NCBI GenBank assembly: GCA_027858315.1
Contig: JAQICV010000092.1
Location: forward strand, 334 to 64,333
Reading direction: 5' to 3'
Origin: Candidatus Woesearchaeota archaeon
GTDB lineage: Archaea; Nanobdellota; Nanobdellia; Woesearchaeales; UBA583
DNA length: 64,000 bases
Positions 2,564 to 63,985 of the stretch are shown one piece after another. The first letter of the stretch is position 1; each line of letters opens with the position of its first letter. The position numbers and the translations under genes are program-made. Under the pieces are notes generated by a model. The model ran no database searches, was not told where the DNA came from, and saw only the letters and a list, made by a program, of their open reading frames with translations.

Positions 2564-3060
2564 AACCAACAGAAAAATCCATGTTTGGATATTATTTTTT
2601 AGGATTTGTTTTGATTTTATATTTATTTTTTAGTATTTATAATTTTGAAATAATAGTTGTTTCTTTGAATTATTTCTTTAGTTTAATGAAAAATGTTTTA
2701 CCATTACTTTTATTTATCTATATTTTGATGGTTATTAGTGATTTTTATTTGACTGAAGAAAAAATAAAGAAACTTAGTAGTAAATTTAATGGTTTTAGAG
2801 GATGGATTTTAGCAATTATTAGTGGAATTATTTCATCTGGACCAATTTATATGTGGTATCCTTTTTTATCAAATTTAAAAAATAAAGGAGTAAGGACGGG
2901 ATTTTTAGTAGCTTTTTTATATAATAGAGCAATTAAAATTCCTTTGATTCCTGTTATGCTTATAGTATTTAATGTAAATTATATTCTTGTTTTATTTGTT
3001 GTTATGGTTTTAGCTTCAATAGTTCAAGGAAAAATTGTCGAGGTAATTTTAGAAAAATGA
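2560..3060 (+). CDS. Integral membrane protein, probable permease half
   Basis: Multi-TM protein. ATGA start/stop overlaps at both ends (2560-2563 and 3057-3060) indicate translational coupling. Confidence 0.55.
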   Translation: MKPTEKSMFGYYFLGFVLILYLFFSIYNFEIIVVSLNYFFSLMKNVLPLLLFIYILMVISDFYLTEEKIKKLSSKFNGFRGWILAIISGIISSGPIYMWYPFLSNLKNKGVRTGFLVAFLYNRAIKIPLIPVMLIVFNVNYILVLFVVMVLASIVQGKIVEVILEK

Positions 3061-3362
3061 AAATAGCAGTCGCGAGTGAATCAAAAGATGAAAATCTTGC
3101 AAAAGTTAGTCCTATTTCAGGAAGAGCATCATATTATTTAATTTATGATGATAAAGAGTTTGTTAAAGCAATTAAGAATCCATTTAAGATAGGTGGAGGA
3201 GGTGCTGGGCCAGCTGTTGCTCAAATGCTTACTAACGAAGGAGTTGAATTAATTATTTCTGGAAAATTGGGAGAGAAGATGATAGGGGTTCTTAATAGTA
3301 ATGGAATTAAATATCAAGTTTCAGAAGAAGTTTTGATTAAAGATTTAATTAGAGATTTATAA
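3057..3362 (+). CDS. NifB/NifX-like dinitrogenase FeMo-cofactor-binding domain protein
   Basis: MKIAVAS...GRASYYLIYDD...GGGGAGPAVAQMLTNEGVELIISGKLGEKM matches the small NifX/NifB-C-terminal family that commonly sits next to DUF134 genes. Confidence 0.75.
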   Translation: MKIAVASESKDENLAKVSPISGRASYYLIYDDKEFVKAIKNPFKIGGGGAGPAVAQMLTNEGVELIISGKLGEKMIGVLNSNGIKYQVSEEVLIKDLIRDL

Positions 3363-3412
3363 TTTTAATTTTAATTTTATTTTATTTTACTACTATTTTT
3401 TATTCTAAAATA

Positions 3413-3423
3413 TTATAAATATT
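3413..3423 (+). promoter_or_regulatory. TATA box (TTATAAATATT) of the DUF2341 gene
   Basis: A/T-rich TATA-like element 39 nt upstream of the ATG. Homologous to TTTTAAATATT at 34698-34708. Confidence 0.5.
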
Positions 3424-3430
3424 AATCACT

Positions 3431-3451
3431 AAATCGTACTTAGTACGATTT
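3431..3451. promoter_or_regulatory. Perfect palindrome AAATCGTAC-TTA-GTACGATTT abutting the ATG (candidate operator)
   Basis: 9-bp arms and a 3-nt spacer, ending 1 nt before the start codon at 3452. The same core recurs at 34717-34739. Confidence 0.7.
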
Positions 3452-6400
3452 ATGGTAAAAGAAAATAGTGCTCGGAAATTGAATTCAAAAACGAAGTTTT
3501 TGATTGGGTTGTTCTTAGTTTTTACTATTTTGTTTTTACCTTCTGTTTATAGTGCGGGAGAGCCTTGGTGGAATACTTCATTTGAATTTAGACAAGAGAT
3601 TAATATTTCTACATCTGCTGGTGCAACTCCTGCAAATTATCAGATAGAGTTAGATCTTGATAATACAAATGTTGGTGCTAATTTTAATTGGTCAAGGAGT
3701 TGTGAAGATTTAAGAGTTCTTGATAATCAAACTAAATTAGATTACTGGATTCAAAGTTGTAATTCGGTTAGTGAGCAGGCAACTATTTGGGTTAAGATGC
3801 CTTTGAGTTTTACAACTGCTCCAAAGACTCTTCATATTTATTATGGAAATTTGAATGTTAATAATGAGAGTAGTGGAGATGCTGTATTTGATTTCTTTGA
3901 TGATTTTAGTGGAGATTTGAGTAAATGGACTGAACATAAAAATCCAGATAAAATTTTTATTGTTGACAATTATTTACAAATTAGTGGAGCAACAACTTCT
4001 GCTCCTTATGGACACTCAGTAATTGGTTCTGATGCTACTTATTCTGGTTTCTTGAATGGAATTATTGATGGTGAACTATATCTTGATACTAATGCAATTG
4101 CGGAGATGGGTTTTAGAGGTAATTATGCTTCTAATACTGGATATAAATCAAGAGCTGATGCTAGACCTTCTGAGGGTGTTTCTCATTTAAAGCCTCCTTA
4201 TAACGGTTGGGGGTTTTTAGCAGGATGTTCTGCAACAGGTGGAGGTATTACCACTCATACTTGGCTTCCTTTTAGTATTACTGTTAATTCAAATACATTT
4301 AATATTGTAACTCAAGGTAAGTCTGTAACTTGTACAGATAATTCTTACAATACTGCAGGAGAAATTTCATTTCATAATCATTATGGTTTATATTCAAGAT
4401 TTGATAATATTAGAGTTAGAAAATATTTTGCATCAAATGTGAATATAGTTTATGGTGTTGAAGAATCTTTAGGTTTGTTAGATTTTAGTTTTTTAACACC
4501 ATCTTCTGTAGGTATTGGTTATATATTTAAAGATGATGTTTTTAATATTAGTATTGCTGTAAGTTGTAGGAAGAAAGCGTCCCCTTTTAATTGTGGAGAT
4601 ATAAATTTTAGTTTAAGATACAATGATACTTCTACAACATTTGAGAATATTTCTTTAAGTTCAACTACTCCTTTATGGATAACAAGTCCTGCTCAAAGTT
4701 ATTCTTTAGTTGATGATGAGACTCATATTATTTCATGGCTTCTAAATGGAAGTGGTAATGCTGGAGATTCATTTTTACTTGATGTGTTTGCTGTAAGTTC
4801 TGATGCTTTTACCTTTAATCAGAAATCTGCAGAAAATGGGCATGTGATAATTACAAATCAACCAATTGTTGCATTTAATCAGAGTATTTATGATTTTGGA
4901 AGTTTTTTTAAAAATTCTGGAAATAAATTGAAGACTTTGAGTATTTTGGCGGATTTAGGAATTAGCACAAATGTAACTGTTACGTGTGAGAGTGGAGACT
5001 GCTCAATGTTTAGTGATGATTGGGTTGATGGAACTGATATGAATGATGGTGATTCCTCTTTAATTGATTTTACTTGCTTTGAAAGTATTTCTGGAGATTT
5101 TAATGCAATATTTAGTGTGAGTTCTAATGAAAATCCTATGAAATCATTTGTAGATTTAAGTTGTAGTGTTGATAAAATTTATGGTCCTATTATGCCTCAT
5201 CTAATTATTCCTGTTGAGAATACTAGTATTAATGTTATGCAAAATGAAACTTTTAAAATAAATGCATCTGTTGATTGTGTTGGTAATTGTGGAGAAATTA
5301 CTGCTTTTGCTTTATATGATAGTTATGTTAATACTTGGAAAAATGTTCTATATCCATTTAAACAAAATATTACTTTGACTTCAGCAACTAGTATTAATTC
5401 GGGTTATCAAACTTTGTTAAGTTTTGATTCTTCAAATATTGGAATTAATTTTGATTGGTCAAATAATTGCGAAGATATTGCTTTTTATACAAATTATGAT
5501 GAACTCTCATTTTGGGTTGAATCTTGTAATGTTGTTGGAGAGGAAATGAAAGTATGGATTAAGACTAATAATCAAATTAATGTTTCAGGATATGATTTTA
5601 GAATGTATTATGGATATATTAATACTAGTAAAAGTAATGGTGAGAGTGTATTTAATTTCTTTGATGATTTTTTAGGTTCTAGCCTTAATCTAAGTAAATG
5701 GAATTTATTATATGACCAAGGATGGTCAGTTTCAGGTGGTGAACTTATTGGAACTAATACTAATGGAATTTTGCATTCTGTAAATTCTTTTTCAAATCCT
5801 GTAATTTTGGAAACTAAAACTAAAATGGTTACTAGAGCTGCAAATGGAATGATGAGTTTAGGTTTTTATTCTAGTGCAGGAGATGGAGTAGGTATTCAAG
5901 AGATAAATGTTGCTCCAGGTCAGTATTATTATAGAAATAATGGAGCTTGGAGCTCAGCTACTGCATTTGATAGTTTATATAATTATCACTATAATAAATT
6001 TTCAATAGATTCATCTAATAATGTTGTATTAACAATTGTGGATTTAATTGATGGAACTACAAGTACAAAGTCTTTTTCAAATACAGTGAATTTAGAAAAA
6101 ATAGCACTTGGTAGAAAATATGATAATGCTAATTTAAATCAAGCATATAATCAAAGATGGGATTGGATTAGAACTAGAATGTATAGTGCAATTGAACCTA
6201 CAATTTTAATTTCAAATGAAGATAAACTCAATATTATTTCAACCAATGTTTTAGATATACCTTTTTATACTTTTAATCTGCAGCCTCAAAGTTGTAATCC
6301 TATTGAGGATGGATCATGTTCTTTTGAATGGCTTGTTAATGTAACAGGATTAATCAATTCAAGTTATAATGTAAGTGTATTATTTTTGTCAAATTATTCT

Positions 6401-7045
6401 AATATATTAAGTGCAACATCAGGTTTTGCTCAAGTGAATATTGTAAATAATTTACCGCCTTTAGTTAATTTAATATCTCCGAATAATAATTCTAAAATTT
6501 TGATAAGTAATGATTTTATAGAACTTAAATATAATGTATCTTCTATTGATACAAATGTTTCTTGCGCTTTATTTGTTAATGGTATTTTTAATACAACTCA
6601 TAGTTGTAATGTGGGTGAGAATAATTTTAATTTATCTGTTAATAGAGGGGCTTATAATTGGTATATACAATCAAATAATTCTTTAGCAAGTACTGATTCT
6701 CAAGTTTTCAATTTTAATATAATAGAAGATTATGATTCAAGGATATCTAAAAAAATTTCAAATATTAATCTTGATTTGTATAAGTTAGAATTAAATATAG
6801 AAAATAGAATTAATAGTACAAATAATATTATTCCAATAGATTTTGTTGATAATAGGTTTAATTATGGTTCTTTTAGCACAACTTATGATTGGTTGAATTT
6901 AACAAATGGTTTATTGTATAATGGTTCAATATTGGGATGGGATTTGAATTTGATTCCTTTAGCTAATTTTAATATAAATTATTCTGTTACAAAAAATGTT
7001 GATGATTACTATTTACTTGATGAATTTATTATTGGATTAGAATAA
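3452..7045 (+). CDS. Giant secreted surface protein with two DUF2341 + concanavalin-A-like (LamG) modules
   Basis: Signal peptide LFLPSVYSAGEPWW. The DUF2341-like pattern (W..SF.FRQEI...NYQ..L.L...NV...F.W....C.DLR.......L.YWI..CN.....IWVK......YYG) occurs twice, each time followed by VF.FFDDF...L.KW (LamG-like). Many N-x-S/T sequons. Paralogue of 34740-38444. Confidence 0.8.
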   Translation: MVKENSARKLNSKTKFLIGLFLVFTILFLPSVYSAGEPWWNTSFEFRQEINISTSAGATPANYQIELDLDNTNVGANFNWSRSCEDLRVLDNQTKLDYWIQSCNSVSEQATIWVKMPLSFTTAPKTLHIYYGNLNVNNESSGDAVFDFFDDFSGDLSKWTEHKNPDKIFIVDNYLQISGATTSAPYGHSVIGSDATYSGFLNGIIDGELYLDTNAIAEMGFRGNYASNTGYKSRADARPSEGVSHLKPPYNGWGFLAGCSATGGGITTHTWLPFSITVNSNTFNIVTQGKSVTCTDNSYNTAGEISFHNHYGLYSRFDNIRVRKYFASNVNIVYGVEESLGLLDFSFLTPSSVGIGYIFKDDVFNISIAVSCRKKASPFNCGDINFSLRYNDTSTTFENISLSSTTPLWITSPAQSYSLVDDETHIISWLLNGSGNAGDSFLLDVFAVSSDAFTFNQKSAENGHVIITNQPIVAFNQSIYDFGSFFKNSGNKLKTLSILADLGISTNVTVTCESGDCSMFSDDWVDGTDMNDGDSSLIDFTCFESISGDFNAIFSVSSNENPMKSFVDLSCSVDKIYGPIMPHLIIPVENTSINVMQNETFKINASVDCVGNCGEITAFALYDSYVNTWKNVLYPFKQNITLTSATSINSGYQTLLSFDSSNIGINFDWSNNCEDIAFYTNYDELSFWVESCNVVGEEMKVWIKTNNQINVSGYDFRMYYGYINTSKSNGESVFNFFDDFLGSSLNLSKWNLLYDQGWSVSGGELIGTNTNGILHSVNSFSNPVILETKTKMVTRAANGMMSLGFYSSAGDGVGIQEINVAPGQYYYRNNGAWSSATAFDSLYNYHYNKFSIDSSNNVVLTIVDLIDGTTSTKSFSNTVNLEKIALGRKYDNANLNQAYNQRWDWIRTRMYSAIEPTILISNEDKLNIISTNVLDIPFYTFNLQPQSCNPIEDGSCSFEWLVNVTGLINSSYNVSVLFLSNYSNILSATSGFAQVNIVNNLPPLVNLISPNNNSKILISNDFIELKYNVSSIDTNVSCALFVNGIFNTTHSCNVGENNFNLSVNRGAYNWYIQSNNSLASTDSQVFNFNIIEDYDSRISKKISNINLDLYKLELNIENRINSTNNIIPIDFVDNRFNYGSFSTTYDWLNLTNGLLYNGSILGWDLNLIPLANFNINYSVTKNVDDYYLLDEFIIGLE

Positions 7046-7907: not shown

Positions 7908-9923
7908 TTATAATAAAAATAAACTGATTACAATTAAGATTACAATTAATCCTAAACCTGTTCCTAAATATACTGAAGATTTTTCAACTTCTGAACCAAA
8001 TAAACTTATAGTGGTATTAGTTGTTGTATTTTCTTGAGTATTATTGATAGGTTTAATATCAATTCCACCTACTCCACCAGTGTTACATTCAAGAACTGTT
8101 AGAGTTGATTCTTCTTTTACAAATTTAGTTCCAAATGAAATTTTTTGTACTACTGTGTATGTTCCAGCTTCTAATAAACTAATATCTAAAATGTAGTTTT
8201 GTTGATCGATTTCATCAACTGATAGTTCATAATTATTTGTTGATTTTTCGATATTTGTTCCAACAATCTCTGAAGATACTGAAATAAATTTATCATTTGC
8301 TCCTAAATTTCTGTATTTTAAATATGTGAATAATTCTTTATCACATTTTACTACTGAAGGACTAATTGCATAAGAGTCAATAATAATGTTATCCATTGGC
8401 CTTACTATTTCAATTTGTTCTACTTCAATTACTTCTTGATCTTCGTATGAAACTCTAATCTCTAATGTATGTGGTCCATCTTGTGCGTCTTCAGGAATGT
8501 TGAATCTTAAAATTTGTGAACTTTCATCATTAATATCTAAGATGAATGATGATGAACTCTCAGTAATATCACTATTACCAAAATCTACATTTTCTAAAAT
8601 ACCTGTAATTTTCACATTTCTTACTGTGCTTGAACCTTGATTTCTAACTACTACTTCAACATCAAGTGTAGAACCTGGTTCTACTGTATCATCAAATATT
8701 AGTTCTTGAATGTATATATCACCAATTACTTTAACTTCTAGAGTTATACTTTCTTCTTCAATTTCATCTCCAGTTGCATCTAATACATGAATTTGAGTAA
8801 TGTAAGTTCCACTAGCTTGTCCTGATGGTACATCAATTCTAATTTCAATTGTATCATCATCACCATTATCTAAATCAATATTTGTTGGACTAAATGTGAT
8901 TGCTTCTTTAGGAATGATGTTGCTTGTGAATTTTTCTTCTAGGTCTCCATCTACTGAGAATGTTAATTCTGTAGCATCTACATCACCAGTGTTATCTACA
9001 TCGAATTCATATTTTTCAATATTTCCTTCTTCAGCGATTACTTTTAAAATTCCTGATCTTACATCAGCTGAGTTTTGTAGAATTTCGATTTCTAAGTCAC
9101 CAGTTAATACTACTCTGATTGTAAAATCTTCATCTAAACCTTCATCTGAAGTAATTGTCATAACTCCTTCATAAATATCTGCATCAACATTTGGAAGATC
9201 AATTTTAAAGTCTAAATTTTGAGATGTTTCTCCAATTGGAAGTGAATCGATTTCAAATTTATCGATGTCATCTCCTTCTAGAATAAAATCATTTTCGTCT
9301 AATTCATCATTTGAATTTTCTCCATCTAATCTTTCTATACTTATTCTAATGTTTGTTAGTTCTACATCACCATTATTTTCAATTGTAAATGAACCTTCTT
9401 GATTTCTAATAGTGTCATCTTTATCTATATCTCCTACAAAATCAATAATTGTTCCTGTAATTCCATTTAAATCAATTGATGGAGCACCAACAATATTTAC
9501 TGTAATACTAAAGTCTACAGTGTTTGTGTTTGAAGGAGTATTATCATTTGTAAATGTTAGAACTTCATCAAATGTACCTGTACTTGAGCCTGTATTGTAA
9601 CTGTAACTAACATCTGCAGTTGCAGCAGGTTGTAGGTTTTCAATTGCAGTTACATTTGTTGTGATTGTAATTCGAGTGTTTGTTTTACTAATTGTAAGAT
9701 TTAACACCTCATCTCCAGTGTTTGTAACTGTTAATGTTTCAGTTTTCGCTGTGTTAACACTATCTGTTGAAGAAATAGCGCTAGGAGTTACTGTGAAATC
9801 TTGAACAGCAAAAACACTTGTAATTGTTAATGTTAGCATTAAGAATAATGCAAAAAATATCATTTTTATTGTTTTTTTCATTTTTTTGTTTATCGTAATT
9901 GATTTATTGTTATTACTACTCAA
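7908..9923 (-). CDS. Acidic, Thr-rich cell-surface protein with C-terminal TM anchor (S-layer/CARDB-like candidate)
   Basis: N-terminal signal/TM segment (IFFALFLMLTLTITSVFA). Repeated beta-sandwich-like units (e.g. DVEVVVRNQGSSTVRNVKITG). C-terminal TM GTGLGLIVILIVISLFLL ends directly at the stop codon. Confidence 0.65.
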   Translation of the reverse strand: MSSNNNKSITINKKMKKTIKMIFFALFLMLTLTITSVFAVQDFTVTPSAISSTDSVNTAKTETLTVTNTGDEVLNLTISKTNTRITITTNVTAIENLQPAATADVSYSYNTGSSTGTFDEVLTFTNDNTPSNTNTVDFSITVNIVGAPSIDLNGITGTIIDFVGDIDKDDTIRNQEGSFTIENNGDVELTNIRISIERLDGENSNDELDENDFILEGDDIDKFEIDSLPIGETSQNLDFKIDLPNVDADIYEGVMTITSDEGLDEDFTIRVVLTGDLEIEILQNSADVRSGILKVIAEEGNIEKYEFDVDNTGDVDATELTFSVDGDLEEKFTSNIIPKEAITFSPTNIDLDNGDDDTIEIRIDVPSGQASGTYITQIHVLDATGDEIEEESITLEVKVIGDIYIQELIFDDTVEPGSTLDVEVVVRNQGSSTVRNVKITGILENVDFGNSDITESSSSFILDINDESSQILRFNIPEDAQDGPHTLEIRVSYEDQEVIEVEQIEIVRPMDNIIIDSYAISPSVVKCDKELFTYLKYRNLGANDKFISVSSEIVGTNIEKSTNNYELSVDEIDQQNYILDISLLEAGTYTVVQKISFGTKFVKEESTLTVLECNTGGVGGIDIKPINNTQENTTTNTTISLFGSEVEKSSVYLGTGLGLIVILIVISLFLL

Positions 9924-9991
9924 TAAGTACTAATTTATAAAGCTTTTGGATTTGCCCTATTTGGGATGATAATAGTTAATGTATGGCAAAG

Positions 9992-9999
9992 TTTATATA
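9992..9999 (+). promoter_or_regulatory. TATA box TTTATATA, 29 nt upstream of ATG 10021
   Basis: Consensus archaeal TATA-like octamer at the spacing recurrent in this window. Confidence 0.5.
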
Positions 10000-10020
10000 A
10001 TTTTTTAGAGTAGTATATTT

Positions 10021-10581
10021 ATGAAAACTGAGAATAAGTTGTTTAATTATATGTTATCAATTGCTTTTATAGTGTTTATTGTATTTATTTTAGGTTCTTT
10101 AATTTTTGTAAGTAGATATGTTTTATCTGAAGAGAATTCTTTAGGTGGTTATGTTACTTCTACTCAAGATTTATTGGATGATGTTAATGAAGTAGAAGTT
10201 CCAATTGATGAAGTAGATACTTTAACAAGTTTGGAACAGAGAAATATTGATAGGTTTAAGTTTAATAGTTTTGAAGATAGTATTACTGATTTTTCGATTT
10301 TGAATGTTGATGAGGATAAAGGAATTATTAGTTTTGTTTTTGATTCTAAGATAGAACAATTTGAGAATATTTATTATATTGTTTTAAAGGATGAAATAAG
10401 ACTTGAAGAAGGTTTTGATATAATTTATATTACTGAGACAAGTTCAGTTAGTTATGGTAGAGTTTTTTCTATTGAGGACGGTAAATATAAGGTTTTTAAT
10501 TCAGATAGTAAAGAAGTTACATATGTTGTAAGAAGTGACATTTTAGGTAAAATATTGTTTAAGGATGAATCGCAGAACTAG
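10021..10581 (+). CDS. Hypothetical membrane-anchored protein
   Basis: Single N-terminal TM (MLSIAFIVFIVFILGSLIFV). Overlaps endA by 17 nt, suggesting an operon. Confidence 0.55.
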   Translation: MKTENKLFNYMLSIAFIVFIVFILGSLIFVSRYVLSEENSLGGYVTSTQDLLDDVNEVEVPIDEVDTLTSLEQRNIDRFKFNSFEDSITDFSILNVDEDKGIISFVFDSKIEQFENIYYIVLKDEIRLEEGFDIIYITETSSVSYGRVFSIEDGKYKVFNSDSKEVTYVVRSDILGKILFKDESQN

Positions 10582-11071
10582 AGTTGATAAGAAGTTAGGT
10601 AGTTTTTTTGTTTTTGATGAGTCTAGAACACAGAGTCTTTTTTCAAAAGGTTTTGGTAGTAAAAATGGTATAGTTTTAGAACTAAGTTCTTATGAGGTTT
10701 TGTATCTTTTGGAGAAAGAGAAAATTGAAGTGTTTTCAGTTGGAAAGGTTTTAGGGAAGGATAAAATTTTGAGTAGGAAAGAGTCTATGATAAATTATTA
10801 TGTTTTTAAGGATTTGAGATCTAGGGGTTATAATGTTAAGAGTGGACTTAAGTATGGTTTTGTTTTTAGGGTTTATGATAAGGGTAAAAAGGTTGGAGAA
10901 GATCATGCTATTTGGCTTATTGAACCTATTTCTGAGTCTGAAAGATTTAAAATTTCTGATTTAACTGGTAAGAATAGAGTTGCTCATTCTACTAAGAAGA
11001 TTTTATTATTTGCAATTGTTGATGATGAAGGAAAGGTAACTTATATTGAGACTGCTTGGAAGAGAATTTGA
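10565..11071 (+). CDS. endA: tRNA-splicing endonuclease (short, homotetramer-type size)
   Basis: YVFKDLRSRGYNVKSGLKYGFVFRVYDKG...HAIWLIEP...RVAHSTKKILLFAIV matches the catalytic C-terminal domain of archaeal EndA. Confidence 0.8.
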   Translation: MNRRTRVDKKLGSFFVFDESRTQSLFSKGFGSKNGIVLELSSYEVLYLLEKEKIEVFSVGKVLGKDKILSRKESMINYYVFKDLRSRGYNVKSGLKYGFVFRVYDKGKKVGEDHAIWLIEPISESERFKISDLTGKNRVAHSTKKILLFAIVDDEGKVTYIETAWKRI

Positions 11072-11076
11072 TTTTT

Positions 11077-11156
11077 TAGTTCATATACTCACGAAAGAAT
11101 AAATCAAAAAATATTTTTTTTGGTCATCGTTTAGTTCGAATACTCACGAAACGATA
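11077..11156 (+). repeat. Two imperfect 28-nt direct repeats (TAGTTCATATACTCACGAAAGAATAAAT / TAGTTCGAATACTCACGAAACGATAGAT)
   Basis: 24/28 identical at a 55-nt period. The second copy sits inside an inverted repeat TCGTTT...AAACGA and ends 6 nt before the TATA-like AATATATTTT of the downstream gene. Confidence 0.6.
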
Positions 11157-11195
11157 GATACAATATATTTTAATGTATTAGTTTGTTTACTTTAT

Positions 11196-11951
11196 ATGGA
11201 GTTGAGTTTGGTTCTAGTTTTACTTATTGTACTTTCGGGTTTTATTAAGGGTTTCACTGGATTTGGGCTTAGTTTGATTTTGATTTCAGTTCTTTTTGAA
11301 ATGGGTTATACTGTTTCTGAGTTTTTACCTATTCTTGTTCCTTTATTTGTTGTTTTAGATATAATCTTGTATTTGGAGAATAGAAAAAATATTAAACTTG
11401 ATTTTAATGAAAATTTTACTTTGCATCCAACTACTCTTATGACTCTTTTTATTGGAGTTTTGTTTGGAACTTATTTACTTACTGCAATTAATGGGGAGTT
11501 TTTAAAAATTTCTTTTGCAATTTTAATTTTAATCTTGCTTTTTGTTTTGGTTGAGAAAGTTGATATTCATCAAATGAGGACTCCTTCTGAGAGATCTAAT
11601 GGTTTTTTTGGGTTTGGGGCTGGTATTTTGACTGGTCTTTTCACACTTAATGCAATGCCGCCTTCAATATATCTCATGTATTATCAGTATCCTAAAGAGA
11701 AATATATGGCAAATTTTGTGACTTTTGTTATTTTTTCAGATTTGATTTTAGTTGCTGTATATCTTTCTAAGGATTTGTTTACTTTAAGTGGTTTTTTTGT
11801 TTCCATGCAACTTTTCTTTATGGTTTTAGTTGGATTTTTGGGTGGGATTTATGCAAGGAAATTTGTTTCAACAAGTACATTTAAGAGTATAGTAATTATA
11901 ATTTTAGGTCTTAATTCACTTAAAATTATATTTGATTATTTCTTATTTTAA
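11196..11951 (+). CDS. TauE/SafE (DUF81) family anion-exporter-like membrane protein
   Basis: About 8 TM segments. N-terminal VLSGFIKGFTGFGLSLI and the overall two-half architecture are typical of TauE/SafE. Confidence 0.6.
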   Translation: MELSLVLVLLIVLSGFIKGFTGFGLSLILISVLFEMGYTVSEFLPILVPLFVVLDIILYLENRKNIKLDFNENFTLHPTTLMTLFIGVLFGTYLLTAINGEFLKISFAILILILLFVLVEKVDIHQMRTPSERSNGFFGFGAGILTGLFTLNAMPPSIYLMYYQYPKEKYMANFVTFVIFSDLILVAVYLSKDLFTLSGFFVSMQLFFMVLVGFLGGIYARKFVSTSTFKSIVIIILGLNSLKIIFDYFLF

Positions 11952-12184
11952 TACCATTATTTTTATAAATTTTCACTGTCGTTCAAGTCACAAGTTGACT
12001 GCTTAAATAGCATCAAACTTATAAACCTCTATTAATTTTTTTTATTAGATCTTAAACTTATTTATGTTTGAGATTTATGAAACCAATTACTTAAATGACA
12101 AATGGTACAAAGTTAAATGCTTAGCATTGCTTTGTCTAAAAATTTCAGAAATGAAATTTGTCTATTTTTGTACATAGTAAAAAA

Positions 12185-12607
12185 ATGGTAGAAATCGATG
12201 AAAAACAAGCTTTTTTGATTATTCAAAAAGCAAAAGAAACTGGTTCAATTAGAATTGGTGTTAATGAAGTAACTAAAGCTGTAGAAAGAGGACAAGCAAA
12301 AGCAGTATTTGCTGCTAATGATGTTTCCCCTGCTGAAATTGTAGCTCACTTATCTGGTATCTGTACTGAGATGAAAGCAGTATTTGCTTCCCTTGGTTCA
12401 AAAGCTGAATTAGGTAGCGCAGTTGGTATTAAATCAACTACTGCTGTTGCAATTATCGATGCAGGTTCTGCAAAGAAAGATTTAGAAAAATTAACTGAAG
12501 AAAAAGCTGCTCTTGTTAAAGAAGCTGTTGTTGAAAAAGTTAAAGAAGAAGCTGCTCCTGTTAAAGAAGAAGTTAAGGAAGAAGCTGCTGTTGAGGAAGC
12601 TAAATAA
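12185..12607 (+). CDS. rpl7ae: 50S ribosomal protein L7Ae with an Ala/Glu/Lys-rich C-terminal tail
   Basis: GVNEVTKAVERGQAKAVFAANDVSPAEIVAHLSGICTEMKAVFASLGSKAELGSAVGI. Start set at the ATG (MVEIDEKQ); the ORF-track start at 12158 is a TTG. Confidence 0.9.
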   Translation: MVEIDEKQAFLIIQKAKETGSIRIGVNEVTKAVERGQAKAVFAANDVSPAEIVAHLSGICTEMKAVFASLGSKAELGSAVGIKSTTAVAIIDAGSAKKDLEKLTEEKAALVKEAVVEKVKEEAAPVKEEVKEEAAVEEAK

Positions 12608-12879: not shown

Positions 12880-13131
12880 ATGGTAGAATGTAGTTATTGT
12901 GGAACTGAGATTGCAAAAGGTACTGGAAAGATGTTTGTTAAAGATAATGGACAAATTTTGTATTTTTGTAAATCTAAATGTGAAAAAAATATGCTAAAAC
13001 TGAAAAGAGATTCTAGAAAGTTTAAGTGGACTAAATCTTTTGTTAAAGGAGCTGCTCCTAATGAAGCTGCACCTAAGAAAGAGAAAGTTGAAAAAGCTGC
13101 TGCTCCTAAAAAGGCAGAAGCAAAAAAATAA
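12880..13131 (+). CDS. rpl24e: 50S ribosomal protein L24e
   Basis: [51 protein letters not shown] (zinc-ribbon L24e). Third gene of the classic archaeal L7Ae-S28e-L24e operon. Confidence 0.9.
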
Positions 13132-13150
13132 ATTTCTTTTAGAAATTTAT
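13128..13150 (+). terminator. 10-bp-stem hairpin overlapping the L24e stop codon, followed by T-rich sequence
   Basis: ATAAATTTCT-TTT-AGAAATTTAT. A weaker copy follows at about 13154-13166. Confidence 0.4.
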
Positions 13151-34524: not shown

Positions 34525-34697
34525 TATACTATATTTCTCCTAAAATTAGGTTATAAATATTTGTTGTCAAAAAAAGTGGTAGTTGTTGTTTTTTGGTAAT
34601 TTATTGCTTAGTTAGTGATATTTTATTCTTAATTAATTTGAAAAAGAAATAATTCCTATATTTTTTTAAGTTTTCACTCCTTATTGTTTGGACAAAG

Positions 34698-34708
34698 TTT
34701 TAAATATT
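34698..34708 (+). promoter_or_regulatory. TATA box (TTTTAAATATT) of the second DUF2341 gene
   Basis: Matches 3413-3423 at 10/11 positions and lies 42 nt upstream of the ATG. Confidence 0.5.
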
Positions 34709-34716
34709 CTTTTTAT

Positions 34717-34739
34717 AAAGTCGTACTTAGTACGACTTT
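34717..34739. promoter_or_regulatory. Perfect palindrome AAAGTCGTAC-TTA-GTACGACTTT abutting the ATG (candidate operator)
   Basis: 10-bp arms and a 3-nt spacer, ending 1 nt before the start codon at 34740. Same core as 3431-3451, with one extra base pair (G...C) added symmetrically. Confidence 0.7.
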
Positions 34740-37700
34740 ATGGTAAACAAAAATGTACTGAGGACTTTGAATGTTTGGACGATGATTCTAGTGCTTAGTA
34801 TGTTTATTTTACCTTCGATTTATGGAATAAGTGCTGCGCCTTGGGCTGATGCTTCTGAACTTTATAGGCAAGAAATTAATATTACTGGAGCAAGTGTTTC
34901 AATTGATAATTTAACACATACTTTCGTTATAGATTCAAGTAATGTTGGTGCAAGTTTTGATTTTACAAATGATAGAGATTCAGTTAGATTTTATTATTTT
35001 AATTCAACCTCTAATGTTAGTTCTTTAATACCTCATTATGCTTCTACTTGGAGCGTTGTTGATTTGAATGCAACTTTAATGATTAAGGTTCCTTATTTGG
35101 ATGCAAGTTCTGATGCTAATTTATTTATGTATTATCATGATTCTACTAAGTCGAATTCGGAGAATTATTGTAGTGTATTTATTTATTGTGATGATTTTGC
35201 AGATGCTTCAATTGATTCTAGGTTGTCAACAGTTGATTTAGATACTGTTGCAGGAACTTCTTTTAGTGAGGGTTCAGGAGTCTTAACTGTTATTGCTGGT
35301 GGTTCAGATACTTGGACTGGGACAGATCATTATGGTTCTGTTTATTTGACAGGAGTGTCAGGGGATGTTGATGTAAGACTTGAAGTTACTTCACAAACAA
35401 ATCCTAATGTATGGGCTAAAGCTGGAATTATGTTAAAAAATGATATGACTGCTGCAGCATCTTCAACAGGATATTCTTTTAATGTTAGGACTCCTGGAAA
35501 TGGTTATTCATTTCAAAGAGATATGAATGATAATGGTTATTTGGATACGAATAATAATGGAGGTGCTCCTTCAGTTTCACCTTCTTATGTTAGATTAGTT
35601 AAAAGTGGAAATACACATACTGGTTATTATTCGAAAACTACACCTAATGCTTGGACTTTAATTACTAGTTCATCAATTACTTCAACAAATAATATTCAAG
35701 ATATAGGAATTTCACTTACTTCACATGCTGGTTCAACTTTATGTACAGCAACTTTTGATGATTTTACTGTTAGAAGATATTCAACAGACACTTTTTCAGA
35801 AATTTTTGGGAATGAGGATAAACTTACAAATTATTTGAGCTCAGTTGTTAATGATCCTTCTATTTTAGCAATTACTAATATGGTACAGAATAAAACTTTT
35901 GTTTTTAATAGCAGTGTTTCTTGTTTTGGGATTGATAATAATTCGGATTGTGGGAATGTTAGTGCAAATCTAAAGTATAATTCTTCGAGTGTCTTTAGTA
36001 GTGTTGCAACAAGTTCTTCAATTCCTGTTTGGTCTATTAGTTCTAATCCTCAAAGTTGTAATTTATTATATAATAGTTCTTGTACTTTTACTTGGACTGT
36101 TAATGCTACTGGTATAGTTGGTTCAATTCATAAGCTAAATGTTTTGTATTCAAGTAATGTTACTGATATATTGAATAAGACTTCTAAAAATGCATCAATT
36201 AAAATCATTAATGGTGATAGTGTGAATTTTAATCAGAGTTTCTATGATTTTTCATCATTTGATAAAAATAGTGGTGATAGAGAAATTACATTAGAAGTTA
36301 TTTCAGATAACGGTGATAATACAAATTTAGTGGTTTCTTGTGAGAGTGGAGATTGTTCTTTGATCTCAGATAATTGGTTAGATGGAATTAATTTGAATGA
36401 GGGTATTTCAAATAATATTGAGTTCACTTGTTCTGATTCGAGTTATGGTGATTATAGCGCAATTTTTAGTGTGACTTCTGATGAGTATGATGATAAATCT
36501 TTAATTAATGTTAGTTGTTTTGTTAATCCTATTTATGGTCCTATTAATGTTTATTTGACTAGTCCAACTCCATTAAGTACAAAGCTTGTTGGACAGAATA
36601 GAACATTTAGTTTTGATTCTTATTTTAATTGCACTGGACTTTGTGGCAATGTTAGTGCATATGCAGTTTATTCAAGTTCTAGTTGGTGGAATCCTGCTTG
36701 GTCATATAGACAGGAGTTGAATATTTCAATTTCGGATGCAATACCTTTAGGATATCAGATTTTATTGAATTTAACTTCGAGTACTATTGGAAGTAATTTT
36801 GATTGGTCGAATAATTGTAATGATGTAAGAATTTTGAATGGGAATACTGAATTAAATTATTGGATTGAGACTTGTAATTCAACAACTGAAAATTTATATG
36901 TTTGGATTGAGAGTGATTCTGCTTTTGCTTCTTCTTCAAATTATATTTTAGATTTGTATTATGGAAATTTTTGGGCGGTGTCAAATAGTAATGCTAGTTC
37001 AGTTTTTAGTTCTGATTTAATTCATTTAACTGCGGGTAGATGTCCTGCTTCTGATGGTGCTTGTAATTATTTGGATAATATTGTAGATGGTCAAACAATT
37101 AGAGCTAATATTGGGGCAATTAATTGGGATGTTGATGGAACTGGTTATGTTAGTACAATTAATAATCCTGATAATCCTTATTCGGGAATAGATGATAATT
37201 TTTATTTGAGATACAGAGCACTTTATATTCCTTCTGTAACTGGAACTTATTGGTTTGGAACTGCTTCCGATGATGGTTCTAATGCTGGATTGTGGAGTTA
37301 TGATGGTTATGGATATGGTTTGTCAACACCAACTTCTTTATCTAATCATGATATAGTAACTGATTGGTATGGTGCTCATGGAAGTGGAACTTGTGGAGCT
37401 ACAGCAGGAATTGAAAGGTCAAGGACTTTAAATGATGGTTTTGGTTATTGGATAGATTATGTTATGCAAGAAGTTAGTGGAGGTCAGGATTCTGAATTTT
37501 GTGTTGATTTGCCAGGAGGTGGAACTAATTATTTGAATTTTAATGATGTTAATTTTGGGGGTGATTTTTATGCAAGAACTTATGTTGAAAATGAACCATT
37601 ATTAGATGATGTTAGTTTAGAAGAGAGTCTGATTATTAGTACAGATTTATCAGAAACTCCTTTTTGGACAAGTTCATTTCAACCTCAAAGTTGTATCCCA

Positions 37701-38444
37701 ATTGAAGATGGAACTTGTCCTTTTTCATGGACAGTTAATGCTACAGGTGCTATAAATAGTTCTTGGAATATAAGTGTTTTTTATGTTTCTAATTTATCTA
37801 GTATCTTGCCTAATCAAACTCTATATACTACTATTAATATTACTGATAATATTGAACCAGTGATTACATTGTATAATCCATTAAATGTTACGAAAATATT
37901 AGGTAATGGGAGTGTAGAATTTTTATTTAAGGTTGATGATGATTCTAGTATTTTGAATTGTAGTTTTTATTTAGATGATGTTTTAAATCAATCTTTTAAT
38001 TGTAATAGTGGAACTAATTATTCACTTAATTTGTCTTTTTACCCAGGTAATTATGATTGGTATGTTAATGTAATTGATGAGATGTATAATTCAGTTAATT
38101 CTTCTAAGTATGAGTTTTGGATGATTTATAATCAGTCTGCTAGAGTATCAAAAAGTATTAGAAATATTAATACAAATATGTATTTTATAGAAGTAAATAT
38201 AAGTAATTCTCTTAGTGATTTTACTTCTCCAATTAGTGTAATGAATTATGTTGATTCAGATTTTTCTTCAGGTTCTTATAGTGTCATTTATGATTGGATT
38301 AATGTAACAATTGGATATTATGTAGGAGATATTTTAGGTTGGGATTTAATTGTCCCTCAATTAGTTTCTCGAGAAATTAATTACTCCGTTAGTGGGATTG
38401 ATGACTATTATTTGGGTAGAGAATTTATGGTTGGTTTAGATTAG
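34740..38444 (+). CDS. Giant secreted surface protein: DUF2341 + concanavalin-A-like (DUF1349/LamG_3-like) + DUF2341 + PA14-like modules
   Basis: Signal peptide FILPSIYGISAAPW. DUF2341-like pattern occurs twice (WSYRQELNIS...GYQILLNL...NFDWSNNCNDVRIL...LNYWIETCN...LYVWIE). GSDTWTGTDHYGSVYL...WAKAGIML...YVRLVKSGNTHTGYYS...ATFDDFTV is concanavalin-A-like. YLRYRALYIPSVTGTYWFGTASDDGSNAGLW is PA14-like. Confidence 0.8.
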   Translation: MVNKNVLRTLNVWTMILVLSMFILPSIYGISAAPWADASELYRQEINITGASVSIDNLTHTFVIDSSNVGASFDFTNDRDSVRFYYFNSTSNVSSLIPHYASTWSVVDLNATLMIKVPYLDASSDANLFMYYHDSTKSNSENYCSVFIYCDDFADASIDSRLSTVDLDTVAGTSFSEGSGVLTVIAGGSDTWTGTDHYGSVYLTGVSGDVDVRLEVTSQTNPNVWAKAGIMLKNDMTAAASSTGYSFNVRTPGNGYSFQRDMNDNGYLDTNNNGGAPSVSPSYVRLVKSGNTHTGYYSKTTPNAWTLITSSSITSTNNIQDIGISLTSHAGSTLCTATFDDFTVRRYSTDTFSEIFGNEDKLTNYLSSVVNDPSILAITNMVQNKTFVFNSSVSCFGIDNNSDCGNVSANLKYNSSSVFSSVATSSSIPVWSISSNPQSCNLLYNSSCTFTWTVNATGIVGSIHKLNVLYSSNVTDILNKTSKNASIKIINGDSVNFNQSFYDFSSFDKNSGDREITLEVISDNGDNTNLVVSCESGDCSLISDNWLDGINLNEGISNNIEFTCSDSSYGDYSAIFSVTSDEYDDKSLINVSCFVNPIYGPINVYLTSPTPLSTKLVGQNRTFSFDSYFNCTGLCGNVSAYAVYSSSSWWNPAWSYRQELNISISDAIPLGYQILLNLTSSTIGSNFDWSNNCNDVRILNGNTELNYWIETCNSTTENLYVWIESDSAFASSSNYILDLYYGNFWAVSNSNASSVFSSDLIHLTAGRCPASDGACNYLDNIVDGQTIRANIGAINWDVDGTGYVSTINNPDNPYSGIDDNFYLRYRALYIPSVTGTYWFGTASDDGSNAGLWSYDGYGYGLSTPTSLSNHDIVTDWYGAHGSGTCGATAGIERSRTLNDGFGYWIDYVMQEVSGGQDSEFCVDLPGGGTNYLNFNDVNFGGDFYARTYVENEPLLDDVSLEESLIISTDLSETPFWTSSFQPQSCIPIEDGTCPFSWTVNATGAINSSWNISVFYVSNLSSILPNQTLYTTINITDNIEPVITLYNPLNVTKILGNGSVEFLFKVDDDSSILNCSFYLDDVLNQSFNCNSGTNYSLNLSFYPGNYDWYVNVIDEMYNSVNSSKYEFWMIYNQSARVSKSIRNINTNMYFIEVNISNSLSDFTSPISVMNYVDSDFSSGSYSVIYDWINVTIGYYVGDILGWDLIVPQLVSREINYSVSGIDDYYLGREFMVGLD

Positions 38445-38490: not shown

Positions 38491-38498
38491 TTTATAAA
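38491..38498 (+). promoter_or_regulatory. TATA box TTTATAAA upstream of the 2774-aa gene
   Basis: 33 nt upstream of the TTG start at 38524. Confidence 0.4.
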
Positions 38499-38523: not shown

Positions 38524-41500
38524 TTGTCAAAATTTAAGTTAGCCGGGGATTTTGGATTTTTAGTTTTTTTTATTTTATTCTTAGTTTCTTCTATGTTTGC
38601 TGTTACTTATTTGACTTCAGAAGATGTTTTTGATGCAAAAATTTCATATGTGAATGATCAGAAATTACCTTATTCTATTATTCTTCAGATTGATAATAAA
38701 GTTTATGATGAGATTGAATTTGATGTTGAGATTATTTTTAAGAAAGAGAATTTAGTTGTTGGTTCTAAGAGATTTGAGTGTTATGGAAGTTGTGAAGAGA
38801 AAATTAATTTGAATAAAATTTTCTTTGATGATTACTTAGTTGAGGTTGTTGCAGATTATAATGGTAGGAGATACAAGAAGGAATTAGAGTTTGTGTTGAA
38901 TGAACCTGAGGCATCTTTTAGCGTTAATCTGGATCCATACTATTATATTGATGAAGGAAAGTTGTTTGTTGATGGAATAATTTTTTCTTCGGTTCCTAAT
39001 ATTCATTATTATTTAGATATTTTTCCTAAGTTGTATCCGGAAGTTAAAGATAGTTTTGATTTTTTTTGTGAGGATTTAATGTGCGATTTTAATTTTAATT
39101 TAACTTCAGATATTTTTATTGGAGATTATTTGGTGAATGTTTATTCGGAGTTAGATTCTTCACAAGAATCTTTTTCCACTTTTTTAATGAATAAATCTGT
39201 TGATATGGAGAATAATAATCTTAATGATAGTAAGAATAATTTTGTTAGTGATGATGTTATTTATGTTGAAGAGAATCAAAAAGAGGTTGACATTTTTGGT
39301 TCTTTGGATTTGATTGATTCATCAAAGGTTGTTTTAGAGTATTATCCTACTCAACATAATGAGAAAAGGGTAAAACAGATGATTGAGTGTGATGATAAAT
39401 GTGATTTTGTTTTAAATATTAAAAAACCTATTATTTTTGGAGATTATCAATTGAATGTTTATTTGCCTAATGGTGTTTTCTCTGATTCTTTTAGAATTGA
39501 TCCTATACTGAATGGAGAGAATGGATCTTCAGATGATGTTTCTGGAGATAATTTGAATGAATATATTAATGATTACTTTGATGAAGAAGAGTTTTTATAT
39601 TTGGAATGTGAGGGTGAGGAGTGTGTTGATGATGTTAAAATTGATTATAATTATTTTTTAAATGATAATTTTGATATTGATATTAATTCTAATTTTGATG
39701 TTAATAATTTGGAATTTATAGATTTACCCGATAGTGTTAATTTGGGAGATGAATTTGATTTTTCAATTTTAGTTGAGGATGGTATTGATTATAATAAACT
39801 GAGATTTCCTAAGTCTATTCAGCTGAGAAAGTCAGATTTTATAGATAAGGGCTTGGAGATTTTAGCAACTAAATTTTCCGATACTAAAAATAGTTTAAAA
39901 TATACAGGAGTTGCAGATTCTGAAGATGGAGAGTTTAAGATTTATGATTCATATGGAAATTTGTATTCTCAGTTTGAATTGAAGGTTAATGTTTCTTCTG
40001 ATGTGAAGAGGTTTGAATCTAAAAATAAAATTGATATAGTATCAATTAAAAATTTGGATAATGGTAAAAAAGATTTAGAAGTTACTAAAAATAATGGTAG
40101 GGTTAATTTTAAAGATGTTAGTCTTGAAGATATTGAAGTAGTGGAAGTTATTGATGTTAAAAATTTAAATGAGAGAATTAATTTAGATATGGTTTCGGAT
40201 GTTGTTCATGTCGAGGCAGATAATTTTGAACAGGCTCAAATTTCTTTAGAGAAAGTTGAATTCGTGAAAAATATTTTAGTTTGTAATGAATTTATTAATG
40301 AACAATGTATCTCTGGTTGGGAAGATTCGAATTTGATTTTTAGTCAAAATAATTCTCATGTCGAATTTAATGTAACTCATTTTAGTGCATATGTTGCAGA
40401 GGGTTCTTCTTATTCTTTTAATGTTGATTTCCAAGATTATTCTGATGTTTTGATATCTCAAGGTGGTTCAGATGTTATTAGTTTGAATGTTAGTTGTATT
40501 AGTGGTGATTGTGGGTTAATTGATGTTGGTTTGTATATGACTACTGGTTTTACTGGTTATGATTTTTATGAGGTTACTGGAAATAAGTATAATGAATTTT
40601 CTTGTAGTCAGAATCCTACTTTAGGTATTGATGATGGGATTAATGTTTATAATTTAGGGTTTGAGTTTCCTTTTTATAGTCAAGTTATTGGTTCTGTTGA
40701 TTCAGTTTATTTTGATACTAATGGAAGATTGTCTTTTGATGATAGTGCTTCAGATTATAACCCTACTGTAGCAGAGATGATAGCGGATGAGAATATTGCA
40801 TTTTTGTGGGCAGATTTGGGAGATGGGACTTATAATAATGAATATGCTTGTTTGGATCAAGGTGTAAATAAGAAGTATTCAGTTTTTAGAGTTGATTCTC
40901 AGTGGTATAATGGAGCAGGGGTTGCTCAGTCTGAGGTTGTTTTGTATAATAATGGTAATGTGAAAATTAATCATGGGACTGTTATTCCTAGAAGTGGTGG
41001 GTTCTATGGACTTAGTGCAGGAGATAATTCTAATTATGATTATTTTGCAACTGATGCTTCTGATTATTCAGATAAATCATATATGTTTTATTATAATAAA
41101 GGTAGTTTAGTTTCTACAATTCCTGCTACTTCTCCTTTCTGGACTGGTGCTTCTCAGACTCAACAAGTGAATTTGGCGGCAGGTGAGTCTATTATTGTAT
41201 CTTTTGATTTGAATGCAGTTGGTGCTGTTAATTTATATGAACTTTATGGAGTTGCTATTTCGAATTCAGATAATTCTCTTCGTTCACAGAGTGATGATTT
41301 AAATGTTTTCATATCAGATAATAATCCTCCTATTCTTAATCTGATTACTCCTATTGATGGGTATGTTGGTTCTTCAATTGAAAATATTATTTCTTTTGAT
41401 GCAAGTTTTACTGATGATACGTCTTTACTTGAGTCTGAGATTTTTGTATGGGATAATTTAGGGAATTTAATTTATAATGTCTCTGATAGTTTATCTGGTG

Positions 41501-62970: not shown

Positions 62971-63071
62971 TTATTATCTTTCTTTATTAATTTTATGTTT
63001 AAAGAAGTAGAGTTAAATTTATAATAATGTAAATTTTGTTTATGTTAAATAGTTTTAGAAAAATATGTTAA

Positions 63072-63113
63072 AGCTACTGGCGGGAATTGAACCCGCGACC
63101 TCGACATTACCAA
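63072..63113 (-). other. 3' fragment of a tRNA, anticodon loop to 3' end, consistent with tRNA-Thr(GGU) (att-like)
   Basis: Minus strand reads TTGGTAA-TGTCG-AGGTC-GCGGG-TTCAATT-CCCGC-CAGTAGC-T. It has a perfect T-arm and an anticodon-loop-like TTGGTAA, but no 5' anticodon-stem strand, D-arm or 5' acceptor strand upstream. Confidence 0.55.
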
Positions 63114-63166
63114 CAGGGACCGGAGAGAGGGGATATGGAGAAGGGAGAGGATTTAAGCGAAACTGT

Positions 63167-63985
63167 ATGTTTTTTCGTATATACGATAAAAATTTAACTC
63201 AGTATTATATATGGATTGAGAAAAGAAATTCTGAATGTTATGCTAAATCTATGAAGTCAGCTTTGAGGAAATTATTTAAACATTTAAGAAATAAAAGCAT
63301 AGCAAAACCAATAGATTTACTTAATTTAATTAAAACTAAAGAGTTAAATGAAGAATATAGTGTAAAGGGTTTTAGAAGTTGGCTTATTTTTTGTGAAGAA
63401 TATGAATTGTTAGATGATTCTACAATTTTGCTTTTTAGAAATAAGTTAAAGCTTCCTAAGTATTATGGAATTGATAATTATATTCCTTCTAAAGAGCAAA
63501 TTAGAGAGAATTTGATTAATGTTAAGGATTATTGTTATGAAAGCTATATTGTTGTTAGAATTTTAATTGAAAGCGGTTTAAGAGTTAAAGAAGTAATTGA
63601 GTTTTTGAGAACTTATGATAGAGGTAAAATTGAAGTATTTGAGAATTTTGTTGTTTATCCTTTATTCTTTTTGAGAGGAAATAAGACATCATATTATATT
63701 TTCTTTAGTAGAAATACATTTGAAGAGTTTAAGGAGATTGATTTTAGTAGTTATAATATTGAAAGATTGAAAACTTACATTAAAAGACATAATTTTATTC
63801 CTTTGAAATATATGAGGAAGTTTAATTTTACTTTATTAGTTGAATCTGAGATTAATTTTGAGATTGCTAATTTTATTCAAGGACGAGCTTCAAAGAATGT
63901 AGGGTTTAAACATTATTTAGCAAAGAAGCAACTTGCAGTTAAAGAATATGAGAAGGTTGTTGGGTTGTTTGAAAGAATAAGCTAA
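63167..63985 (+). CDS. Tyrosine recombinase / phage-type integrase
   Basis: ESGLRVKEVIEF (catalytic Arg box) and C-terminal FIQGRASKNVGFKHYLAKK (His/Arg...Tyr region). Start set at the internal ATG (MFFRIY), because the first 34 codons of the ORF-track call translate the tRNA fragment and a purine-rich tract. Confidence 0.7.
   Translation: MFFRIYDKNLTQYYIWIEKRNSECYAKSMKSALRKLFKHLRNKSIAKPIDLLNLIKTKELNEEYSVKGFRSWLIFCEEYELLDDSTILLFRNKLKLPKYYGIDNYIPSKEQIRENLINVKDYCYESYIVVRILIESGLRVKEVIEFLRTYDRGKIEVFENFVVYPLFFLRGNKTSYYIFFSRNTFEEFKEIDFSSYNIERLKTYIKRHNFIPLKYMRKFNFTLLVESEINFEIANFIQGRASKNVGFKHYLAKKQLAVKEYEKVVGLFERIS
63167..63985 (+). mobile_element. Integrase module flanked by tRNA 3' sequences (remnant or edge of an integrated element)
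   Basis: The integrase gene lies between a tRNA 3' fragment (63072-63113, minus) and the 3' end of another minus-strand tRNA (63980-64000). Confidence 0.45.

Follow-up and report, generated by a model that had tools for sequence, protein, structure and literature searches.

The question raised by this locus is what a perfect palindrome lying against the start codon of a surface-protein gene does there, and what keeps its two arms complementary. The stretch of DNA analysed (64 kb at full length, 28% G+C; hereafter the window) is archaeal, encoding a tRNA-splicing endonuclease, an archaeal CCA-adding enzyme, and GH57 enzymes, and the nearest named homologues were found in Nanoarchaeia or Nanoarchaeota MAGs. 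An archaeal phage-type integrase gene (PF16795, E = 6e-37) was identified at the right end of the window (63065-63985), near which a mobile element may start. Strongly depleted palindromic tetramers in the whole window were GATC (0.32 of expectation), ACGT (0.36), and CATG (0.45), but not GTAC (0.85), a pattern that suggests restriction-modification pressure on the three depleted words.

Two palindromes at surface-protein start codons

The palindrome was present in front of two paralogous genes coding for secreted proteins. Since their products are only 31% identical, the promoter element is conserved far better than the coding sequence. The genes and their palindromes were located as follows:

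3452 to 7045, forward strand: paralogous surface-protein gene, secreted product of 1197 aa with DUF2341
34740 to 38444, forward strand: surface-protein gene with the dyad in front, secreted product of 1234 aa, DUF2341 / PA14-like
3430 to 3452, no strand: perfect palindrome, first copy, TAAATCGTACT-T-AGTACGATTTA (11+1+11), centre T at 3441, last base being the A of the ATG
34715 to 34741, no strand: perfect palindrome, second copy, ATAAAGTCGTACT-T-AGTACGACTTTAT (13+1+13), centre T at 34728, last two bases being the AT of the ATG

The initial annotation read the second copy as AAAGTCGTAC-TTA-GTACGACTTT at 34717-34739, with the ATG at 34740 and a TATA-like element TTTTAAATATT at 34698-34708, and the first copy as AAATCGTAC-TTA-GTACGATTT at 3431-3451, with the ATG at 3452 and TTATAAATATT at 3413-3423. 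These letters and coordinates were correct and the dyad was indeed perfect, but the 10-bp arms ascribed to it were too short, as the symmetry extends to 13+1+13 at 34715-34741 and 11+1+11 at 3430-3452. The two sites were the longest two and the most G+C-rich perfect palindromes in the 64-kb window, and the only ones in it with the 15-mer core TCGTACTTAGTACGA. Matches to this core with up to three mismatches numbered five in the window compared to 0.64 expected, a count reached in 0 of 100 shuffles, and GTAC-N3-GTAC was found three times compared to 0.10 expected. Folding of the DNA single strand gave -7.3 and -10.2 kcal/mol for the two palindromes (z = -5.1 and -6.6 versus shuffles).

That one extra base per arm separates the two copies, as initially proposed, remained the most economical reading, with the flanks TAAA and TTTATGGTAAA retained and the centre-to-ATG distance moving from 11 in the first copy to 12 in the second. 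As the form lacking the additional G/C was also found in locus L133 and, with one mismatch, in L009, the G/C pair of the second copy represents the derived state. The dyad was without variants in the DNA runs of the same study. Contigs from two of these runs (X2 and X3; window 34544-34735) stopped at the palindrome or just short of it; dyads of this kind break up metagenome assemblies and get lost at contig ends. A further 11.6-kb contig from run X1 matched only the first 67 nt of the gene (34740-34806) with eight differences and had a Shine-Dalgarno-like upstream part (...GGGGTTGACTAAA) without the dyad; this contig comes from a relative or paralogue with an operon-internal layout.

Conservation of the dyad in related promoters

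Homologues of both window proteins were fetched with their surrounding DNA, and gene-anchored scans yielded four loci from metagenomes and five from genome contigs, none of them belonging to the genome of the window itself. A palindrome at the same place, before a DUF2341 gene, was identified in 17 promoters from 11 Nanoarchaeia-type (DPANN) genomes. Besides the window copies, these were:

L133: TAAATCGTAC-TTA-GTACGATTTA, a 23-mer identical to the first window copy, with a protein 65% identical
L005: AGTAGTGTAC-TTA-GTACACTACT
L007: ATAAAACGTAC-TTA-GTACGTTTTAT
L017: AATATCGTAC-TTA-GTACGATATT
L135b: TTAAATTGTAC-TTA-GTACAATTTAA
L135a: CATAAACGTAC-ATA-GTACGTTTATG
L006a: AATTGTAC-ATA-GTACAATT
L006b: ATTGTTGTAC-ATA-GTACAACAAT
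L134: TATTATTATAC-ATA-GTATAATAATA
L010b: TAATTGTAC-ATA-GTACAATTA
L012: TAATTTGTAC-ATA-GTACAAATTA
L002: TTATTTATAC-ATT-GTATAAATAA
L138: TAAGGTGTAC-ATT-GTACACCTTA
L009 and L010a: dyads with one mismatch each, A·C (L009) and A·G (L010a) on the sense strand

With the 17 promoters anchored at the dyad centre, Watson-Crick pairs occupied 150 of the 153 cells at ±2 to ±10 compared to a fraction of 0.29 for random window centres, and no G·U pair occurred among the 153. Over the ten pairs from ±2 to ±11, 96.5% of cells were paired versus 25-43% when the partner was slid by one to three columns. Departures from the commonest pair in these columns were two-sided in 36 cells and one-sided in none, and the observed covariation was reached in 0 of 500 shuffles. 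Symmetry beyond ±12 was at background. The core TAC-NTN-GTA was invariant, including a T at the centre of the coding strand in 17/17, and was extended by G/C at ±5 (14/17), Y/R at ±6 (17/17), and T/A at ±7 (13/17), such that the half-site TYGTAC is a normal 6-bp half-site recognisable at promoters of 11 genomes.

Copies within one genome differed at ±5 to ±10 with each still perfectly symmetric (window, L006/L134, L135, and L010), and the dyad was present in all clades of the protein tree, the DUF2341 proteins behind dyad promoters sharing 31-65% identity overall. All three dyads of the L006/L134 genome had ATA as their central triplet, with TTA in the L134 orthologues elsewhere; this agreement within a genome across paralogue clades fits a genome-specific trans-acting reader, the exception being L135 with both ATA and TTA. 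The initial annotation held the dyad to be conserved as such and named orthologues without it, or with broken complementarity, as what would count against this; in the orthologous and paralogous promoters of the 11 genomes the dyad occupied the same place with many arm changes matched, and the claim stood. Its argument that the matched indel itself suggests selection on structure fared less well. A single template-switch event at a quasi-palindrome carries multi-base changes and indels from one arm over to the other (PMC8794818, PMC7202029, PMC3820800), making the indel alone insecure evidence of selection. The case for function lies instead in the position, core, and spacing being kept across proteins 31-50% identical, and these comparisons argue that the palindrome is a real control element.

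Since every clade of the protein tree has the dyad, its absence from loci L001, L011, and L013 represents losses. The DUF2341 gene of L001 and L011 follows a gene for a 159-aa protein and has a Shine-Dalgarno site in front (GGAGGTGA or GGGGGGTGA), and hence has no promoter of its own. A degenerate dyad remnant was all that was found at L013/L014, where the orthologue is split into two reading frames of 874 and 325 aa (8001-11707, in two independent assemblies) and is possibly a pseudogene. Absence of the dyad coincided exactly with genes that are internal to a transcription unit (L001 and L011) or split (L013). The 159-aa protein (L011 5404-5883; L001 5-412) is built of two ~75-aa repeats (...SKTELW.ALPKKIMYQ.YK...) and gave no Pfam family. 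In L011, another palindrome, ATCATATAA-AC-TTATATGAT (5389-5408), encloses the ATG of the gene for this protein.

The specificity of the dyad was evaluated with a covariance model (R2) searched over 247 kb comprising the window and 16 loci, which recovered all training copies and a single further match at E < 0.1 in front of the gene coding for ribosomal protein L7Ae:

12165 to 12185, no strand: candidate third copy in the window, imperfect through a single G·A mismatch, TTTTTGTAC-ATA-GTAAAAAA, and abutting the ATG at 12185; R2 score 24 bits, E ~0.01

Translation from the ATG at 12185 gives MVEIDEKQAF..., a proper L7Ae N-terminus, and this ATG is the likely true start of the gene, the TTG at 12158 selected by the ORF finder probably not being so. 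TACWTWGTA cores numbered 36 in the 247 kb, 17 of which had an ATG-led frame 10-14 nt past the centre (16 DUF2341 genes and L7Ae); the other 19 had arms of 3-5 nt and lay in arbitrary places. A mobile palindromic repeat of the REP/MITE type was rejected, as the confinement of the dyad to DUF2341 genes and the one L7Ae match across the 247 kb indicates that it is not a dispersed repeat. Searches of IMG/VR returned no relative of the DUF2341 protein, and the at least 113 unrelated matches there to the pattern GTACTTAGTAC-N2-8-ATG were taken as chance. Further along the ribosomal protein genes, an AT-rich perfect palindrome ATAAATTTCT-TTT-AGAAATTTAT at 13128-13150 overlaps the stop codon of the L24e gene (12880-13131) and may mark the end of the L7Ae-S28e-L24e operon.

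Promoter spacing and the predicted start site

The elements upstream of the three paralogous surface-protein genes of the window were as follows:

3385 to 3393, forward strand: upstream motif variant, TTTTACTAC, -57/-56 from the centre, the same distance as in the second copy
3413 to 3423, forward strand: TATA-like element of gene 3452, TTATAAATATT, best 8-mer starting 27 nt before the centre and 38 before the ATG
34671 to 34680, forward strand: upstream motif conserved across the family (consensus TTTTCACTAC), here TTTTCACTCC and 57 nt before the centre
34698 to 34708, forward strand: TATA box of gene 34740, TTTTAAATATT, in which TTTAAATA matches the consensus at 8/8 and starts 29 nt before the centre and 41 before the ATG
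38491 to 38498, forward strand: TATA box of the third paralogue, TTTATAAA, separated from the TTG start codon at 38524 by 33 nt, as is usual for genes of this genome

Conservation of the TATA-like element, seen initially in the two window copies, extended to all 17 promoters at a fixed distance from the dyad. The best match to TTTAWATA started 26-30 nt before the centre, equivalent to 37-41 nt before the ATG, in 17/17, and a good TATA box also at the usual distance was found in only two. In 13 ordinary promoters of the window, 29-34 nt separate the start of the TATA box from the ATG, as in leaderless genes, and the surface-protein promoters have ~10 extra bp between TATA and ATG. The archaeal TATA box lies ~28 nt before the start site (PMC8553660). 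A TATA box at 37-41 nt rather than the usual 29-34 nt before the ATG therefore predicts that transcription begins at the centre of the dyad or within its right arm, which would leave the mRNA without the left arm. The RNA from the predicted start had an unstructured 5' end (z = +0.9 and +1.2), compared to -10.3 and -15.2 kcal/mol and folding over the AUG for RNA with both arms. The distance from centre to ATG was 9-14 nt with a mode of 11 among the 17 promoters. Three small metatranscriptomes from the same saline-spring study contained nothing from the locus.

At least 11 of the 17 promoters, including those of loci L005, L006, L007, L009, L002, L133, L135, L138, and L010 besides the window, had the TTTTCACTAC motif (57-59 nt ahead of the dyad centre and ~29 nt ahead of the TATA box), which may be an activator site. 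The upstream motif was not a general feature of the window, in which the pattern TTTTCACTNC was not enriched (17 matches versus 31 expected). Conservation around the dyad came in discrete islands and not as a conversion tract. The third paralogue (38524) is without the dyad, in agreement with the initial annotation; the accompanying suggestion that it is read through from, or regulated via, gene 34740 was not upheld, as it has a canonical TATA box of its own and the tandem genes of L006 and L135 each have their own dyad. Its TATA at -33 makes read-through an unnecessary assumption.

Candidate mechanisms and their meaning for DPANN surface proteins

The preferred reading, to which about even weight is given for and against, is that the dyad is a conserved cis-regulatory operator for a dimeric regulator, overlapping the predicted start site of the DUF2341 genes. 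The promoter would consist of three fixed parts, namely TTTTCACTAC ~58 nt before the centre, the TATA box 26-30 nt before it, and the dyad of 21-27 bp touching the ATG. TBP and TFB would occupy the TATA box while a dimeric regulator reading the core TYGTAC-NTN-GTACRA would fill the place of RNA polymerase and turn the gene off; with the gene on, transcription would proceed from the dyad centre or just after it, giving an unstructured leader of 9-14 nt with the right arm only. Symmetry outside the shared core could derive from template-switch homogenisation or from an added need for a hairpin or cruciform. We infer both the binding of a protein to the dyad and repression as its effect, and gene 34740 is accordingly only predicted to be under the control of its start-site dyad. 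Two traits of an operator, a dyad-symmetric DNA site and its conservation at orthologous promoters with a recognisable half-site, were found here.

The MDR1, LrpA, Phr, and NrpR operators overlap the start site on the downstream side of the TATA box, allowing TBP and TFB to bind while excluding polymerase, and are imperfect palindromes with a known protein. The dyad described here is likewise downstream of TATA and over the predicted start site, but it is perfect, its regulator is only proposed, and it is accompanied by a second conserved motif ~58 nt upstream. Palindromic start-site operators that block polymerase recruitment are a classical mode of archaeal repression, and those of TrmB/TrmBL1 (Tgr) in Thermococcales and Halobacterium read TACT-N3-AGTA, TATCAC-N5-GTGATA (TGM), and TACT-N7-8-GAGTA (PMC4158304). 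The dyad shares with the TrmB/TrmBL1 sites an inverted repeat at or after the TATA box that covers the (here predicted) start site and a half-site with TAC/GTA, and the TrmB/TrmBL1 feature of a winged-helix dimer that reads the operator and keeps RNA polymerase off is also what is proposed here. In contrast, its motif is TYGTAC-NTN-GTACRA, a TACT-N1-AGTA reading is possible only in the TTA-centred copies and differs from all published motif spacings (PMC4158304), and assignment to the TrmB-regulon operator motif was rejected on the spacing of the GTAC-N3-GTAC core. Further differences from TrmB are the targets (surface proteins versus sugar metabolism genes), a cognate TrmB that is only a candidate, and perfectly symmetric arms of 10-13 bp with copy-specific covariation. 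The element appears to work like an archaeal start-site operator outside the known TrmB motifs, given its different spacing.

Genes of the TrmB family adjoin dyad-bearing DUF2341 genes in two of the 11 genomes (L006 3994-4770 and L010 7949-8695, reverse strand; 28% identical), making a TrmB-family protein a candidate reader of the dyad that is only a lead. The window contained no TrmB homologue and no candidate for the binding protein, its only HTH-like gene being DUF134 at 1786-2130, and the target genes of the various loci shared no consistent neighbour, HTH neighbours differing or being absent. No paper describing the promoter element was found in the literature.

Several observations sit poorly with a plain operator and bring structural readings into consideration. 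Known operators are usually imperfect; no intermediates of any kind accompany the arm changes here; the coding-strand centre T in 17/17 is an asymmetry that a symmetric site does not need; and the combination seen here, a core conserved at the apex and a lower stem that covaries, is the pattern of a hairpin element. As same-genome copies differ at ±5 to ±10, a protein tolerating these differences gives no reason for symmetry there. A structure-dependent DNA element, in which a cruciform or hairpin at the start site answers supercoiling or a structure-specific protein and self-complementarity is selected, would account for symmetry to ±10/11, well past the shared core, for at least a dozen independent two-sided changes with no intermediates, and for same-genome copies that keep their symmetry while their sequence varies. 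If both strands must pair, a lack of G·U is expected, and arms of 10-13 bp around a centre of 1-3 nt, with AT-rich outer ends and the low single-strand folding energies given above (z = -5 to -7), also suit such an element. Nevertheless, we consider it unlikely. Extrusion does not call for a strictly conserved core (here TAC-NTN-GTA and Y at ±6), nothing indicates that negative supercoiling in these organisms would suffice, and we know of no archaeal precedent for a start-site cruciform element. Template switching, moreover, can give symmetry without selection (PMC8794818). A broader alternative, that a start-site cruciform or hairpin switch (apical GTAC-NTN-GTAC), selected for self-complementarity and responding to supercoiling or to a structure-specific factor, sets the expression of the main DPANN surface proteins, or else that an unusually strong, lineage-wide template-switch drive in DPANN genomes perfects operators, is regarded as rather doubtful.

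An RNA hairpin in the 5' leader with both arms transcribed, hiding the AUG bases or capping the 5' end and so affecting translation or mRNA stability, possibly through a protein reading the conserved apical GUAC/loop, was judged improbable. The phage MS2 replicase operator hairpin over the start codon and the ompA 5' stabiliser hairpin have a conserved apex and a covarying stem, and the dyad resembles such elements in its conserved loop and apical pairs over a variable but paired lower stem, which classically mark an RNA hairpin bound by a protein, and in a stem whose end meets or enters the AUG in every copy. The folding of the two-armed RNA, the strand-specific centre T (17/17), and the upstream co-directional operon (3057-3362), from which read-through would include the whole hairpin, are in keeping with this. 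Unlike in those hairpins, however, the sole conserved TATA, 26-30 nt before the centre in 17/17 and with no conserved TATA further upstream, places the predicted start inside the palindrome and would leave the left arm untranscribed; several copies have a divergent upstream gene and hence no read-through. G·U was absent from all 153 cells, the two core mismatches were A·C and A·G on the sense strand, and no Rfam match was obtained at E <= 1. The divergent upstream genes also ruled out a terminator of the preceding gene. That the palindrome as such is without function, an inverted repeat left over from the past whose perfection is maintained by template-switch mutation or by gene conversion among paralogue promoters, is very improbable. 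Template switching can fix stems and move indels between arms in one step (PMC8794818, PMC7202029, PMC3820800), accounting for the matched changes, indels included, and for the missing one-sided and G·U intermediates, and the two recent one-sided mutations (L009 and L010a) are what a cycle of mutation and correction predicts. As a mutational process, it leaves unexplained the conserved core, the fixed spacing, and the gene-family specificity: position, core, and TATA/ATG spacing persist in 11 genomes and in protein clades that share only 31-50% identity, the conservation islands are discrete, unlike a conversion tract, the dyad is gone precisely from those genes that no longer possess a promoter of their own, and neutral extension would not halt at ±11-13 each time. 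Adhesin-like surface proteins are often phase-variable, and Dam sites at pap and agn43 in E. coli provide phase switches through competition of methylation and protein. A comparable epigenetic switch, GTAC methylation competing with a binding protein to phase-vary the surface-protein genes, would fit both the adhesin-like targets and the two GTAC sites 7 bp apart in 14/17 promoters; it is given the slightest of chances, as GTAC is not depleted in the window (81 observed versus 95 expected, 0.85), L134 and L002 have ATAC/GTAT for GTAC in both arms, and the window showed no gene for a GTAC methyltransferase.

To our knowledge, next to nothing has been learned of how DPANN archaea regulate their genes, and their giant surface proteins are the likeliest tools for host-cell attachment. 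The recognisable module of TTTTCACTAC, TATA box, and start-site dyad provides a handle for finding the regulator and for defining its regulon in any MAG, and helps to predict the start sites and true start codons of surface-protein genes. The promoter set also constitutes clean natural data for the question of selection for structure versus template switching at perfect operator palindromes.
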